A stretch of 64,000 nucleotides of DNA, taken from an uncultured Alphaproteobacteria bacterium. Its GTDB lineage: Bacteria; Pseudomonadota; Alphaproteobacteria; RF32; CAG-239. Position numbers: made by a program. The stretch spans positions 4,162 to 68,161 of the forward strand of contig CAKQSV010000001.1 of the NCBI GenBank assembly GCA_934273635.1, written 5' to 3'. This document shows, piece by piece, positions 21,001 through 30,000 of the stretch (positions within the stretch are counted from its first letter, which is position 1; every line of letters starts with the position of its first letter).

Positions 21001-24000
21001 AATCGTACCCAAAACCTGACCGTCAAAATTGACCAGTTCACCTTTCAGATTAAGCTCACCCAAAACCTGAAAACTGTTATCGCGAATCAAAAAGTCTCGA
21101 CTGCCACGACCAATCAACTGGCCATCATTATTAACCAGAAAACCTTGCTTGAGCAGACCCAAGTGCATACCGAGCGGAGACAGCACGTTGCCGTCTTTGG
21201 TAATGTAGCCCATAACTTTGTTGTCGGGGTCGTACATATAAAAATCATAAAGCGCATAACCGATGTTGCGACCGTTGTTGACAACGTTGCCATAAAAATC
21301 AACCTTGCCCAAATTTTCGCCTTTGGAGCTGATAACCTGACCATCGGTGCCGACATAGCCGATGTATTTGTCTTGCAGATTGAAAGCCACACGGTATTTA
21401 AACAGATTTCCGACCGACAGTCCGTTTTTGGAGTTGACATTGCCGTTGGGTTGCATATAGCCGATAGTTTGGCTTTTGTTGTCAACCACCTTACCGCTCA
21501 AAATCGTGCGACCGAGCAAATTGCCGTTAAAGTCAATCACCGGATAAGATTCAACCGTGTGACCAATCGTAATACCGTCATTGTTTTTCAGGTAGCCACG
21601 GCGGTCGACACAGCCTAAAATCTCATTATTATAATTCAAAACCTGACCATTGGCCGAGGTCACGCCGATAACGCCACCGGTAAAATTGACGACCGCAGTC
21701 GGATTGACCGCATAACCGATATAGCCGCCACTTTCGCTGACAACTTGTCCGTTCGGCAACAGGCGACCTTGCACCACATCGCGATAGTTGCGAACATAAC
21801 CGCGCGGCGTAACCACGCCCACAAACTCGCACTCGTCATTAATGATAGAGGCATATTCAACCGTACGACCGATGAGGGTATTATTGTTATCAAAAACATC
21901 GCGACCATTAATAATTTTGCCCAAAGTGCCGCCGCTCAAATCTCTGATTTTGCCGTTTTGCCCGGTGTAGCCGATAATGTTGCCGTTAAAGCCCATGGCA
22001 ATCGCCGTGCCATAAGCATTGCCGACCTGTGGGCTGACGGTGGTGTTTTTGTTGGAATCGTCATCAACCACCGACAAGTCAGGCAAAATTTTTGCCATAT
22101 ACTTACCGGCGCGGGTTATCATATTTTCAATCCCGAGTTTGCCCAACAGGTCTCCCTGACGACTGACGGCGTTTTCAATATTCAGATTTTTAGCAATAAT
22201 CTCACCGCGTTCGTTCAAACTAATGCCTGATTGGGTCAGTTTGCCAACCGCGACAGCTTCTTTATTGAGCAAGTCGCCACCGGGCATAACATAAGCATTA
22301 AGCGCGCCGTTTTCATCATACAAAGCAGAGAGAGGGAATCCGCGTCCCGAGTTTTTGCCGTCGGCGGTGAACATATAACCGAAAGGAGAAACAAACTTCT
22401 TTTCCTCGCCGTCATAGACCACACCGTTGATACCGGCCATACCCAAAACTTTGTTATTGCTGTTGACAGACAGAATATTGCTAAAACTACCGCCGATGAC
22501 GCGTCCGGTATTGTCAAAAGCCGTATTATCAAGCATATAACCGGTCGAGGTACCGTCTAAGGTAATCACCGAGCCGTTTTTGAGCGCTTGATAAGTCAAC
22601 GTCCCCTTATAATCAAAAACAGGACCGGAGTTGACCAACTTACCAACCAGCGCGCCTGAATTGTCATAAACAAAACGACGAGCGCCGACAAAACCGATGA
22701 CATCTTTGGCGCGGGCGACCTTACCTTCCGGCAAAACTCGACCGAGATAAGCTCCGTTAAAGTCGGTTGCCGTTGCCGAAACATCGACCGTATAACCGAT
22801 AACCTCAGCTTTATCATTAATAACCATACCATCTGAACGCACCCGACCAATGAGGCTGTTATTAAACATCACTTCGCCGTTATAGGTCACTAAACCCAGA
22901 TATTGACCGTCATCACCCAAAGCATAACTGCTGTGCACAATGCTGCCGATGATTTTTTCGCCGTCGTTATAAACATAGCCGTTGGCTTTAATCCGACCGA
23001 TTTGACGCCCCGAAAAATCGGTCACAGCACCACCGGGGGCAATGCTACCAATAAACTCACCCTGATTAGAAACCACCATTTTGGAAGAAATCAGCCGACC
23101 TTCAAGCACATAATCGCCACCCAAACGCCGAAAAGCATAGCCGTCAGCCGAAACAAAGCCAATTTCCTGCCCCTGAAGGTTAGTATAAACACCGTTACCG
23201 GTAAAGCGACCGATTGTGGTACCCTCGTCAGAATAAATCAAACCGGGGAACAGCACCGCACCGGAAACGTTATAAAACTCGTCAACAACCAAACCGTTCG
23301 GCAAAACTCGTGCCACGATTTTTCCGGAAGGCAGGCGCACCGTACCGTCGTTTCCGACCTTACCCAGAGGTTTGTTGTCATTGCCGATTGCAATACCTTG
23401 CGGAACCACGCCGCCGATAATATGCCCCGAAGAATCGACAATAAAGCTGTCGGCTGTCACATTGCCCAACAACTGATTTTCAAGTCCGACAACCTTACCA
23501 TCGGGAATAACCTTACCGATAACCTCGCCATTAAAGTTTATGGCGGTGATTTCTTGCGCCAGAGCCTCTGTTGCCCATGTCAACAAGCCGCAAAAAGCCA
23601 GACCGGCGGCCATGACGGTTTTTGCAATTTTTTTCCTCATCTCTTCAGAGCAATATGGCAAATCAGTTTCTCCGGTTTTTTGCTACCTCGGGAAGAGCAT
23701 AGCCCGATATCTTGTTGTCTAAGTTCACGAACGAGCCGTTGTTTTTGATGTATCCGCTGTTGCGACCAAATTCATCAACGACAATTCCCTTAGCATTAAG
23801 ACGTCCGACATATTTTCCTTCGTTGTTTAGTATAGTAGCACCTATTTTATAGATTTTGCCTAAGATATTTTCATTATTATCAACAGCTAAATCATTAGAA
23901 ATGACTTTTCCAACCACGGCGCCGCTATTATCGGTAATTCTACCATCAAAATTTATATAACCCACCATTTTATCGGAGTTATCAATAACAATATCGCCGT

Positions 24001-27000: not shown

Positions 27001-30000
27001 CAAGCCCGATAACATCGCCATTTTTATCCATGCGACCGATAACATTACCGTCTTTATCAACCACCGAACCGTCTGACAACACGCGACCGATAACATTACC
27101 GTTGGCGTCATAAACAAAACCGGCGTCCATAGCCTTACCGATAACGTTGCCGTCTTTGTCAACCACCGAACCGTCCGGCAAAACCTTGCCGATAACATTG
27201 CCGTCTTTATCAACCACCGTACCGTCAGCCAGCACACGACCGATAACATTGCCATTAGCGTCATAAACAAGGCGCTGATTTTCAGCAACGCCGATAACGT
27301 TGCCATTTTCATCGACAACCATACCGTTGGCATTGACACGCCCGATAACATTACCATTAGCGTCACGAACATAGCCGTCTTCATCAATCGTACCAATAAT
27401 TTCGCCATTGGGGCCGATAGCATAGCGCACACCGGTGGCCGGCGTGTCTTTTCCGGCAGCGCCGGTTGACGCCGTATCACAGAAATTGCAATCTTCTTTG
27501 CGTATTGCCTTACCGAAAACCGGCACTTTTTGCGACTTGTTACTACCGGTGCTCAGATTAGACTCATGCCATGTGACAATAAAATTGTTTTGCACGTTTC
27601 CGGCAACAACCGGCGTCCACGACATAGTCACATCGCAAGTTTGATGTCCGCGCAAAACCATATTACTGCAATGCTCTTCAAAGCTAAAGCCGTCAAACGG
27701 CGGTTCGGCCAGTTGCACCGAGATAATACGAACACTGCCCTTGCCGTTGGTACCGATTGTCAACACATTTTTGGCCTCGGTGCCCAGCACAACCTGCCCC
27801 ATTTCAATCGGATCAGGCGTGGTGGTTATGGGAATTTCTCCCTGCTCAACATTTTCAAACTCGATACTCTCTTGAGTGGGCTCTTCACTCTTAAAGTCAA
27901 GCGCGTCATCATTAGAGGTGAAAACCGGCGCGCTGTATTGCTCTTCTTCCTCTTCATCCTGCAATAAAAGCATTAAACCCAGAACAAAAATGACCAAAGA
28001 AATTATACCAACCATCATAATGATATGATTGGTCTTTTTAACATAGGCCTCGGAGTGGGTTAATGCTTCGTTTTCGTTTTTCATTGGGTTCTGACCACAC
28101 TGCAAAATACACCGTTACGTCCCAAACGACTGCAAACGTCGTCACCGTCTTCCAAACTATTGACCGGTCCGACACGCAGGTGGAACAGTTCTTTGCCTTG
28201 TCCGTCTGCCGCGGCGTCAACCGAGAAAAACGGCTCATAATCCCCCAAGGTGTCGGCATATTTTTTAGACAAGGACGACCATAAATCCTCCAAATTGGTA
28301 ACATTGCTGTCGGTTCCCAATTCGATGGAAATGTTGCTGTTATCGGCAAAGGTCAGACCGCCGCCGTTCTTGCCCATATTGCCAAAACTGCCCTCCGGCG
28401 CATATTGCCGGTTGTTGGTAATTCGTTGCATTTTAGAGTAGTCAAAGTTGCCACTGCCGCCGCTATTGCCGTTGGGGCGATAGCTGATATTGATACTGCC
28501 ATCCGAATTGCGGTTGTAGGCAGGCACAACAATCTCGCTATTGCCGACGTTTACATCATATTGACCGGTGGCACCACCCTGCGCGCCGGAGGTTGAGTTT
28601 GAGCCTTGTCCGTTCTTTTCAGGAATCGGCGCCGGTACCTGCCACTGTTTTTCATCCATTTCTTTGGTGGTGGGCATAAACTCAAGTCCGGCATCGTCAG
28701 AGCGACGAAGTTTGAGGCAAATCATACGTTTGCCGTTGCGCAACACCATATCACCTATACCCTCGACAATAATCAGACGGTTGTTGGGGCCTTTGGTTCT
28801 GAAACCGACCGGCACTTCAATACGCTCCACAATCAGGGTGACAATCGGGCGTTGGGTCATCGTCAAAGATTTTTCACCCAAATCAATATAAGTGAAAATA
28901 TCATCACGCCACACCCGCTCAGGCGCAATCACAACATCATCAGGATTGGGGATGTAAACCTCGATATCAAAACGGAATTTTGAAGCATCTAACGGAATTG
29001 ATTTTATCCAATCGCTACGTTGAAAGCTCTTCGTAAACAGAGAATCGACCGATTTATCATTACCACCGCGATAGGTTGAGGCATTAATATTGCTATGTCC
29101 GCCAGAAACGCCGGCGCGACGACCACTGCCAGGGCCGTCGATAACATCAATATCAATAATGGAGTTGGTCAGGCGTTCGGTGTTTACACCCTCGCTTTTG
29201 AGGTAGAACACATATTTGTTGCCACTGCGACCAAAGATGATGATGTTGGTATCAACGCCAACATTGGCACCTTTTTTAGGATAAAGCAAAACCGTATTCG
29301 GTCCGGAAATTTGCCCGTCAAAACTTGAGCTATCACCCAAATACATATCTTCAATCAGCTCCCAACTCGGAAAGTTGAGCAATGTGACCATACCCTCGCG
29401 CACACGGATAGGCAAAATCAAATCCGGCGACCAATAATATTTGGAATAGGCCGGTTTGGTTTGTCCTTCGCCCAAGTTTTGCAACGGATCAAGCCAAGCG
29501 CTTTGCGTCATACCCAGCGAATTGAAACCGGCATAGCTCATATTCATCGGCATATACATACCCTGACTTTGGTCTGCGTTTTGGTCAAGACTGCCCATTG
29601 TCGCCTGCGCCTGAACGCGCCCGCTCAACACACCTGCAATCAAAACCAAAAACAATATTCTACCGACTACTTTTAGCATTTATTTGTGACCTTATCTTGT
29701 TTTATTATGCATTAGAGAATATCTGGTAACCGTAAAGCCGACCGGATTATTCAATCTGTCGTTAAATTTTACCGCCTTTTTACGATAGGTAATCCGCAAT
29801 GAGGCTGTCCAATAATTCAGTTCAGGTGTGGTTGACGACGGATACATATCCCGCGTTTCATACTCCACCTGCCACAAACCTTGCCCCAATTCATTAACTG
29901 TCAAGATTCTGACCGAGCGTTGCAAGCCGCGGCGTTTGACTAATTCAAGCGCTCTTTTGGCCGTTTTGTTAATAAACTCATCATAGACAGCCGAAGACGA

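Follow-up and report, generated by a model that had tools for sequence, protein, structure and literature searches.

A probable two-gene VirB10 in the type IV secretion loci of uncultured gut Alphaproteobacteria

Gene X and its neighbour virB10'

The stretch of DNA analysed here (hereafter the window) comprises 64,000 nucleotides (nt) of contig CAKQSV010000001.1 (positions 4,162 to 68,161; GenBank assembly GCA_934273635.1) from an uncultured alphaproteobacterium, and carries a type IV secretion system (T4SS) locus. This study concerns a 1473-amino-acid (aa) protein encoded directly after virB9, which is named X, and its relation to the TrbI-barrel protein encoded downstream, which is named VirB10'. 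All sequences are derived from metagenome-assembled genomes (MAGs). The features of both genes are as follows, with scores of the predicted local distance difference test abbreviated to pLDDT.

23663..28084, (-) strand: X (open reading frame (ORF) and translation), a probable barrel-less, inner-membrane-anchored half of VirB10
28028..28084, (-) strand: cytoplasmic tail of X, aa 1-19, motif LTHSExYVKKTN (conservation in 27 sequences)
27962..28024, (-) strand: single transmembrane helix of X, aa 21-41 (AlphaFold2 and hydropathy)
27833..27961, (-) strand: acidic spacer of X, aa 42-84 (DEEEEEQ...), weakly conserved, pLDDT ~50 or lower
27500..27832, (-) strand: ASH/PapD-like Ig domain of X, aa 85-195, followed by CxxC at aa 199-202 (AlphaFold2, Foldseek)
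25565..27430, (-) strand: regular 17-aa (51-nt) beta-hairpin repeats of X, aa ~219-840, in blocks of 3-5 units (Pfam, DNA periodicity)
23666..25516, (-) strand: degenerate-repeat module (DRM) of X, aa 857-1473, with the conserved tail EVAKNRRN before the stop (colinearity with VirB10')
16684..23640, (-) strand: VirB10', 2318 aa from the ATG or 2325 aa from a TTG at 23661, with signal peptide, DRM, regular repeats and TrbI barrel
23557..23640, (-) strand: predicted Sec signal peptide of VirB10', aa 1-28, cleavage ALA/QEITAINF (orthologue counts)
17011..17580, (-) strand: TrbI/VirB10 beta-barrel of VirB10', aa 2021-2210 (Pfam PF03743, 123 bits)

The longest frame of X (23663..28105, (-) strand) begins with a TTG and encodes 1480 aa, while the first ATG, at 28084, yields the 1473-aa protein. 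At the virB9/X junction (...CCCAATGAAAAAC), this ATG (28084-28082) and the virB9 TGA (28083-28081) form an ATGA overlap, and the X stop TGA (23665-23663) is followed 22 nt further downstream by the virB10' ATG at 23640. The ORF, the overlap and the 22-nt gap to virB10 given in the initial annotation were all confirmed from the sequence, as was its layout of a short N-terminus, one transmembrane helix, an acidic spacer, an Ig domain and ~1250 aa of repeats. The alternative virB10' start, the TTG 1 nt past the X stop, is the one used by the public gene call. An identical, intact 1473-aa X occurs in two public assemblies, a 360-kb ENA metagenome contig and a Logan contig. NCBI labels the X orthologue MBR2922000.1 just as "DUF3659 domain-containing protein", and most database relatives are unnamed.

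Residues L8, T9, S11, E12, Y14, K17, T18, and N19 in the tail of X are invariant in 27 homologous sequences. AlphaFold2 predicts a helix at residues 10-42 with pLDDT above 90, and the apolar run at residues 21-41, set in a hydrophobic window of aa 17-45, provides the sole 19-residue window of X with a Kyte-Doolittle value above 1.6; this run measures 21-25 aa across 69 X orthologues. The K/R-rich tail on one side of the helix and the acidic spacer on the other suggest an N-in topology, so that X would be a bitopic inner-membrane protein.

The Ig domain is modelled by AlphaFold2 as eight strands with pLDDT ~90. Structure prediction of this region, which the initial annotation had proposed as a check, returns an ASH/PapD-type sandwich both in the AlphaFold2 model and in Foldseek comparisons, in which one of the best PDB matches is the ASH domain of CEP192 (6fvi, E 8e-7, template modelling score (TM-score) on target 0.63). 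The top matches (E 5e-7 to 3e-5, TM-scores 0.6-0.7) include ASH-rich ciliary central-pair proteins; the PapD-like domain 2e6j of HYDIN is matched with a TM-score on target of 0.72, and 2ys4 is also among the top matches. At sequence level, X scores 20.3 bits (E 6e-4) with Pfam ASH PF15780, under the cut-off of 27, and 23.5 bits with NCBIfam choice-of-anchor D NF012200, under the cut-off of 45. Therefore, the ASH type first assigned to this domain holds at the level of fold, whereas the sequence matches to ASH and choice-of-anchor D stay below their cut-offs. Of the cysteines, C150 is the same in all 27 sequences, and C139, C199, and C202 show conservation of 90% or more. The Ig part of the X profile also matches domains inside very large proteins that have a signal peptide but no relation to VirB10, namely P0068 (4358 aa), P0080 (2404 aa), P0119, P0140, and others, which are devoid of the X tail, transmembrane helix, and barrel. 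Thus, the Ig domain by itself is not specific to T4SSs.

The repeats of X carry a D-x-N/D-G turn motif every 17 aa, and their DNA shows a 51-nt periodicity with 60-90% identity between units. In Pfam, X obtains 362 bits with Bflower_2 (14 stretches), 183 with Bflower, and 174 with DUF3659 (cut-offs 38, 25, and 24.8, respectively), and VirB10' obtains 546 bits (20 stretches), 222, and 253 with the same families. With scores above the gathering thresholds (PF21785, PF21784, DUF3659; clan CL0395) and the [DNEQ]xxG tip in its hairpins, X falls into the beta-flower group by sequence. The Bflower families PF21784 and PF21785 were set up to cover the beta-flower fold of Durairaj et al. 2023, described as small domains of ~96 residues of unknown function with a [DNEQ]xxG hairpin tip (PMC10584680); in this fold, hairpins close into shallow barrels of 4-, 5- or 6-fold type. 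Whereas the published domains span ~96 residues, the hairpins of X and VirB10' form arrays of 1250-1900 aa within a subunit of a secretion machine. The AlphaFold2 model of X aa 215-479 contains 29 short strands and no helix (pLDDT 81.5), and the PDB holds no beta-flower for comparison; PDB sequence searches with X and with VirB9 gave no matches. The DRM, which forms the C-terminal 617 aa of X, is colinear with VirB10' aa 27-649 (24% identity, E 9e-38), a stretch that begins immediately after the predicted cleavage site of VirB10', and the EVAKNRRN tail of X is kept in orthologues.

The C-terminus of VirB10' finds ComB10 (2bhv) as its best match among PDB sequences (1e-20), together with TraF, CagY, and TrwE, while the NCBIfam models T4SS_VirB10 and ComB10 match only under their cut-offs. 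Neither Pfam nor NCBIfam reports a TrbI (PF03743) match in X. In turn, the window VirB10' contains no 19-residue window with a Kyte-Doolittle value above 1.6, i.e., no segment of transmembrane grade. Its N-terminus reads MRKKIAKTVMAAGLAFCGLLTWATEALA, followed at the predicted cleavage point by QEITAINF. Counted over 58 distinct orthologues, the residue at -1 is A in 56 cases and S in 2, that at -3 is A in 42, V in 8, S in 3, L in 3, G in 1, and T in 1, and Q occupies +1 in 45; all 58 were counted as fitting the -3/-1 rule. The predicted mature protein starts with a conserved xEITA(I/V)(D/N)F, whereas the peptide ahead of it is not conserved. Such a pattern is that of a Sec signal peptide that is cleaved and suggests that VirB10' has lost its anchor, a point absent from the initial annotation. 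The window VirB10' is the longest of 61 orthologues (range 1411-2318 aa, median 1508), and its extra length lies in regular 51-aa (3 x 17 aa) super-repeats at aa ~900-1800.

Single-chain relatives of X and VirB10'

When a profile of the X N-terminus was run against 1.84 billion representative proteins, it retrieved, in addition to X orthologues, ~17 clusters (50% identity) of giant proteins of 1498-2406 aa. These proteins match the profile from end to end with their first 200-300 residues, and their C-terminus is a VirB10 barrel. The profile matches the N-termini of TrbI-containing proteins with E 1e-70 to 1e-182, and Pfam confirmed TrbI in P0067, P0070, P0077, and P0078. The single-chain VirB10 proteins that were looked up, all of them uncharacterised and of metagenomic origin, measure 2201 aa (P0067), 2350 aa (P0070), 1930 aa (P0077), and 2085 aa (P0088). 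These fused proteins begin with SSSEQYVKKSNR-type tails, related to the X motif, and continue with one transmembrane helix and an Ig domain in which the Cys, Trp, and CxxC positions are conserved as in X, the N-terminal module as a whole being 24-31% identical to that of X.

In the fused-type loci L087-L090, whose guanine-plus-cytosine content ranges from 34% to 53%, the gene order is (VirB8), small ORF, VirB8, VirB9, giant VirB10, VirB11, and the giant gene of L087, which encodes P0067, overlaps virB9 by 4 nt as X does. Residues 3-1459 of P0067 are colinear with residues 5-1462 of X (29% identity), and residues 201-2079 with residues 201-2230 of VirB10' (31.5% identity); the DRMs of X and VirB10' both map to a region that starts at ~aa 260-430 of the fused proteins. 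Since X and VirB10' are both colinear with the fused VirB10 and share its repeat body, they appear to be two derivatives of one giant VirB10. The description of X as a VirB10 paralog without the barrel is thus borne out by its colinearity with TrbI-bearing giants over ~1460 aa and by that of its DRM with the VirB10' body. On the other hand, the statement that X is inserted between virB9 and virB10 has to be abandoned, since the same slot in the sister lineages, with the same 4-nt overlap with virB9, holds a single VirB10 that starts like X, so that X corresponds to the front half of VirB10. X and the single-chain giants of these sister lineages share the tail motif, the transmembrane helix, the Ig domain with its CxxC, the beta-flower body, the slot, and the virB9 overlap, whereas the TrbI barrel is kept in the same chain only in the giants.

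VirB11 identity amounts to 79-93% among split-type loci and to 63-77% when the window is compared with fused-type loci. Neighbour-joining of 78 VirB11 sequences groups all 74 split-type loci in a single clade and places the four fused-type loci outside it. According to a 2025 review, no subunit other than VirB10 is known to form a physical bridge between the inner-membrane complex and the outer-membrane core, and in known systems one VirB10 polypeptide spans both membranes (PMC12857230). As all VirB10 proteins characterised so far carry anchor and barrel in one chain, the simplest reading is that the split state is derived and arose once.

Distribution of X and readings of the split

Each GTDB species was represented by one genome in a scan with the X N-terminus, which matched 210 genomes; 80 of these loci were fetched. 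The order VirB6-like, VirB8, VirB8, VirB9, X, VirB10, VirB11 is found in all 80. X is intact in 74 of them, with 1039-1834 aa and a median of ~1180 aa; in the remaining six, X is cut off by the contig end in three cases and interrupted in the other three, once by an N gap. The virB9/X spacing varies across orthologous loci, the ATGA overlap being the commonest arrangement and a gap of 7-15 nt the other. In two loci picked through a divergent VirB10' regardless of X, the tail ...EVA(Q/R)NRRN, followed by a stop, lies directly upstream in both. The hosts are uncultured gut and rumen Alphaproteobacteria, e.g., uncultured Azospirillum sp., Candidatus Scatocola (within Rhodospirillales in the NCBI taxonomy), and Azospirillum sp. 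51_20, which we take to correspond to the GTDB order RF32.

X is under strong purifying selection. The ratio of nonsynonymous to synonymous substitution rates (dN/dS, Nei-Gojobori) of X orthologues is 0.015-0.056, alike in the N-terminus, the repeats, and the DRM, and unsaturated pairs give 0.035 at dS 0.15 and 0.015 at dS 0.29. These values bear on the reading of X as a decaying, functionless pseudogene left by a tandem duplication of VirB10, for which interrupted alleles are the argument. The first three related loci, ordered VirB8, 62-aa ORF, VirB8, VirB9, X, VirB10, VirB11, each have an interrupted X. In the UMGS418 lineage, X is frameshifted by an apparent 11-nt deletion between AAT repeats, on a contig found in six samples; X of L005 has an in-frame nonsense codon (TTA to TAA), X of L006 a frameshift, and several database fragments have frameshifted tails. 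The interruption sites lie at ~10735-10760 in L003, L004, and L024, at 10925-10927 in L005, and at ~7890-7905 in L006. They may represent true strain variants or else errors of short-read sequencing. Against decay stand the 74 intact genes of 1039-1834 aa, the low dN/dS including that of the unsaturated pairs, the invariant residues in tail and Ig domain, and L060, apparently of the same lineage as L005 (identical VirB10' N-terminus), in which X is an intact protein of 1100 aa. The initial annotation had named an ORF interrupted in long-read data as the sign of a pseudogene, but with 74 of 80 species genomes intact and dN/dS not above 0.056, X as a pseudogene in general was rejected, and the decay reading is highly improbable.

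A second alternative, in which X and VirB10' would really be one ORF divided by an assembly or gene-calling artefact, draws on the fact that repeats break many short-read assemblies: the N-terminal 234 aa of X matched 63 database proteins, all of 398 aa or fewer and many on contigs of 1-3 kb. However, the unique junction (EVAKNRRN, stop, signal peptide, QEITAIDF) recurs in ~70 independently assembled species genomes with differing nucleotide sequences, and X and VirB10' are in different frames at the window locus and at many others. We give this alternative next to no weight.

The fixed place of X in every locus speaks against its reading as a generic surface adhesin or Rhs/YD-repeat protein that lies at a T4SS locus by chance. 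In favour of this reading, whole-sequence RHS_repeat and YD_repeat scores pass their cut-offs, local Foldseek matches to Rhs shells reach E ~1e-10, and NCBI names orthologues by DUF3659 only. Nevertheless, beta-flower models outscore RHS threefold, no single YD stretch of X passes for Pfam RHS_repeat (PF05593) and one does for TIGR01643, and the matches to Rhs shells have a TM-score of ~0.1 and a root-mean-square deviation of ~20 A, which is no global match. General Pfam and NCBIfam scans reported no Rhs core or toxin tail for X, although no separate test was aimed at them. Moreover, the N-terminal module is common to bona fide VirB10 proteins, and a protein with an N-in topology, one transmembrane helix, and no cleavage site would stay in the inner membrane. 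The initial annotation had named homologues that occur mostly outside T4SS loci, as generic adhesins, as the case against its reading. At each of the loci examined, however, X was located between virB9 and virB10, which makes it a T4SS-locus protein, and a chance association of an adhesin or Rhs protein with this locus can be regarded as practically negligible.

We consider it likely that X represents one half of a giant VirB10, namely the half that is anchored in the inner membrane and has no barrel, and that this clade encodes the giant VirB10 as two adjacent and translationally coupled genes. According to this scheme, the ancestor would have been one VirB10 of 1500-2400 aa, composed of the tail, the transmembrane helix, the ASH-type Ig domain, the beta-flower repeats, and the TrbI barrel. 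At the base of the clade, the repeat body would have been duplicated and the gene divided, X retaining the tail, the helix, the Ig domain, and one repeat body, and VirB10' retaining the other repeat body and the barrel, with a cleavable Sec signal peptide gained where the anchor had been. X would be inserted N-in, with its conserved tail taking the role of the single-chain VirB10 N-terminus at the inner-membrane complex, whereas VirB10' would be exported and processed, and its barrel would join VirB9 and VirB7 in the outer-membrane core. In the periplasm, the paralogous repeat bodies of X and VirB10' may bind each other and rebuild the bridge between the membranes non-covalently, and the tight spacing of the genes (virB9/X ATGA; X/virB10' 1-22 nt) could keep the amounts of the proteins matched. 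Whether the T4SS of this clade (at least 210 species-level genomes) has in fact lost the covalent VirB10 link, with X and VirB10' joined by heterotypic packing of beta-flowers, is a further claim for which we see the chances as evenly balanced.

Alternatively, X could be a VirB10-derived accessory component of the periplasm, comparable to DotF and unpaired with VirB10', which might form a ring of its own, attach to peptidoglycan, or reach the surface; in that case, the machine would run without any inter-membrane bridge of VirB10 type. The Ig domain and the conserved CxxC, which are present in X and absent from VirB10', as well as the identity of just 24% between the two DRMs, are compatible with such a role, and the recruitment of additional core subunits is known from expanded T4SSs (PMC12857230). 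However, the Ig domain and CxxC are no novelty of X, as single-chain VirB10 proteins have both, and X is always accompanied, at tight spacing, by a VirB10' that appears to lack the anchor. Such complementary loss is the expected outcome when a single bridging protein is subfunctionalised. An accessory role is accordingly considered unlikely, although it retains more weight than the alternatives discussed above.

Several points weigh against the two-gene VirB10 and have to be set beside it. MAGs supply all of the data, and a few assemblies hold X alleles that are broken just past the Ig domain. The association of X with VirB10' is inferred from their sequences. The cleavage of VirB10' was judged by a rule-based count of residues rather than by a trained predictor, and if its N-terminal peptide served as a signal anchor without being cleaved, VirB10' would remain tethered, which would make X an accessory. 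Furthermore, the VirB11 tree is built on a single protein, with midpoint rooting and without support values. Finally, every pair of DRMs is 24-29% identical, which is too diverged to date the duplication, and the DRMs cannot tell a whole-gene duplication with reciprocal truncation from an internal duplication with fission.

If the two halves do re-associate, the tie of VirB10 between inner and outer membrane would be held non-covalently in a large uncultured group of gut bacteria. A widespread and selected two-gene VirB10 of this kind would show that evolution can dispense with the covalent bridge, and the X/VirB10' pair, as a natural split, could be used to test how VirB10 couples the membranes or passes signals across the envelope. 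Moreover, the X family would represent a core component of the T4SS in common uncultured gut and rumen bacteria that has been hidden behind the DUF3659 label. The recently named beta-flower repeat would in turn be placed inside a defined molecular machine, which would be the first functional setting for this fold.

Known secretion systems and the rest of the window

X shares its tail, transmembrane helix, and long periplasmic topology with the canonical VirB10/TrbI proteins (A. tumefaciens VirB10, R388 TrwE, pKM101 TraF, H. pylori ComB10). It directly follows virB9, and X and VirB10' together fill the virB9-virB11 slot in 80 of 80 loci; unlike in the canonical proteins, anchor (X) and barrel (VirB10') are here found on two polypeptides. 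Canonical VirB10 has a proline-rich linker, the place of which is taken here by hairpin repeats of ~1250 aa in X and ~1900 aa in VirB10', in addition to the Ig domain of X.

The CagY protein of H. pylori (1927 aa) is likewise a giant VirB10 with long repeats before the barrel, and its barrel is related to that of VirB10'. However, CagY is one chain, and its repeats recombine to tune function, whereas the repeats of X and VirB10' are 60-90% identical in DNA and X is under strong purifying selection. Recombining repeats of the CagY type were rejected on account of this degree of identity and because X and VirB10' share no long identical DNA tracts.

Within the Legionella Dot/Icm system, DotF is a bitopic inner-membrane protein, and DotG is a single chain that, unlike VirB10', keeps its own N-terminal anchor. 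The likeness of X and VirB10' to this pair is a functional analogy only, X being without sequence relation to any PDB chain including DotF. DotG, a repeat-containing VirB10 homologue, works beside DotF as a subunit of the core complex (PMC12857230).

The locus resembles the Rickettsiales rvh system in having two virB8 genes that flank a small virB7-like gene, followed by virB9-virB10-virB11, and at least one large VirB6-like protein. The rvh system has duplicated and partly degenerate VirB4, VirB8, and VirB9, with RvhB9-II lacking the C-terminal domain, and no split of rvhB10 is described in the rvh paper (PMC4676284). In contrast to rvh, the window shows one virB4, one virB9, and no virD4, and the hosts are gut Alphaproteobacteria of Rhodospirillales type. 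Membership in the rvh group was rejected, as its defining duplications (virB4, virB9) and the virD4 that follows virB11 there were not found among the ORFs of the window that were scanned. Literature searches on RF32 with type IV secretion, on DUF3659, and on VirB10 with beta-flower returned nothing relevant, an absence that is no proof. The remaining T4SS genes of the window are the following.

28081..29679, (-) strand: VirB9, 532 aa (Pfam CagX/VirB9, 45.7 bits, cut-off 34.2), with a stop that overlaps the X start
15704..16672, (-) strand: VirB11 ATPase (Pfam T2SSE)
29692..30444, (-) strand: VirB8 paralog b (Pfam VirB8, 87 bits; PDB matches to VirB8 and TrwG)
30463..30666, (-) strand: candidate VirB7-like lipoprotein of 67 aa with a lipobox-like LPSC, between the virB8 genes (translation)
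30750..31505, (-) strand: VirB8 paralog a (Pfam VirB8, 59 bits)
39923..42358: virB4

A gene of 57-65 aa is called at the position of the VirB7 candidate in related loci of split and fused type alike, an arrangement reminiscent of rvhB7-rvhB8 in Rickettsia. VirB9 carries a SPOR-like (peptidoglycan-binding) domain at its C-terminus (aa 452-530; Pfam 21.8 bits, cut-off 21), which to our knowledge is unusual for VirB9, and the C-terminal sequence ...GKELFHLR(I/V)GPV...GRNGVFCSVVR(T/V)Q is kept in the three related loci that were read. Between virB4 and virB8, four ORFs (684, 292, 476, and 1387 aa; 31515..39843, (-) strand) gave no meaningful Pfam or NCBIfam match. The 1387-aa ORF, which occupies the place expected for virB6, shows 24-42% identity in related split-type loci. 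Past virB11, a 541-aa gene (13983..15608, (-) strand) bears no signature of a type IV coupling protein (T4CP/VirD4) in Pfam or NCBIfam and follows virB11 in only some related loci, with 41-55% identity. Among the ~29 larger ORFs of the window searched with Pfam, ten of them also with NCBIfam, no coupling protein or relaxase was matched, seven ORFs of 171-469 aa being left out of this search.

A divergent gene set on the (+) strand (1187..9153) encodes a TrbL/VirB6-like protein (1187..2506), a 1022-aa protein without a Pfam match (2520..5588), and a 1197-aa protein (5560..9153) with a C-terminal Bflower_2 match of 30.6 bits, under the cut-off of 38. These genes may encode further VirB6-type paralogs equipped with the repeat of X and VirB10'. 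Beside the T4SS, a pilus/secretion cluster (43279..50454, (-) strand) contains T2SSF, T2SSE ATPase, PilO-like, and secretin genes. The window is chromosomal and also carries dnaX, the signal recognition particle (SRP) RNA, a tRNA, and an alpha-amylase gene.

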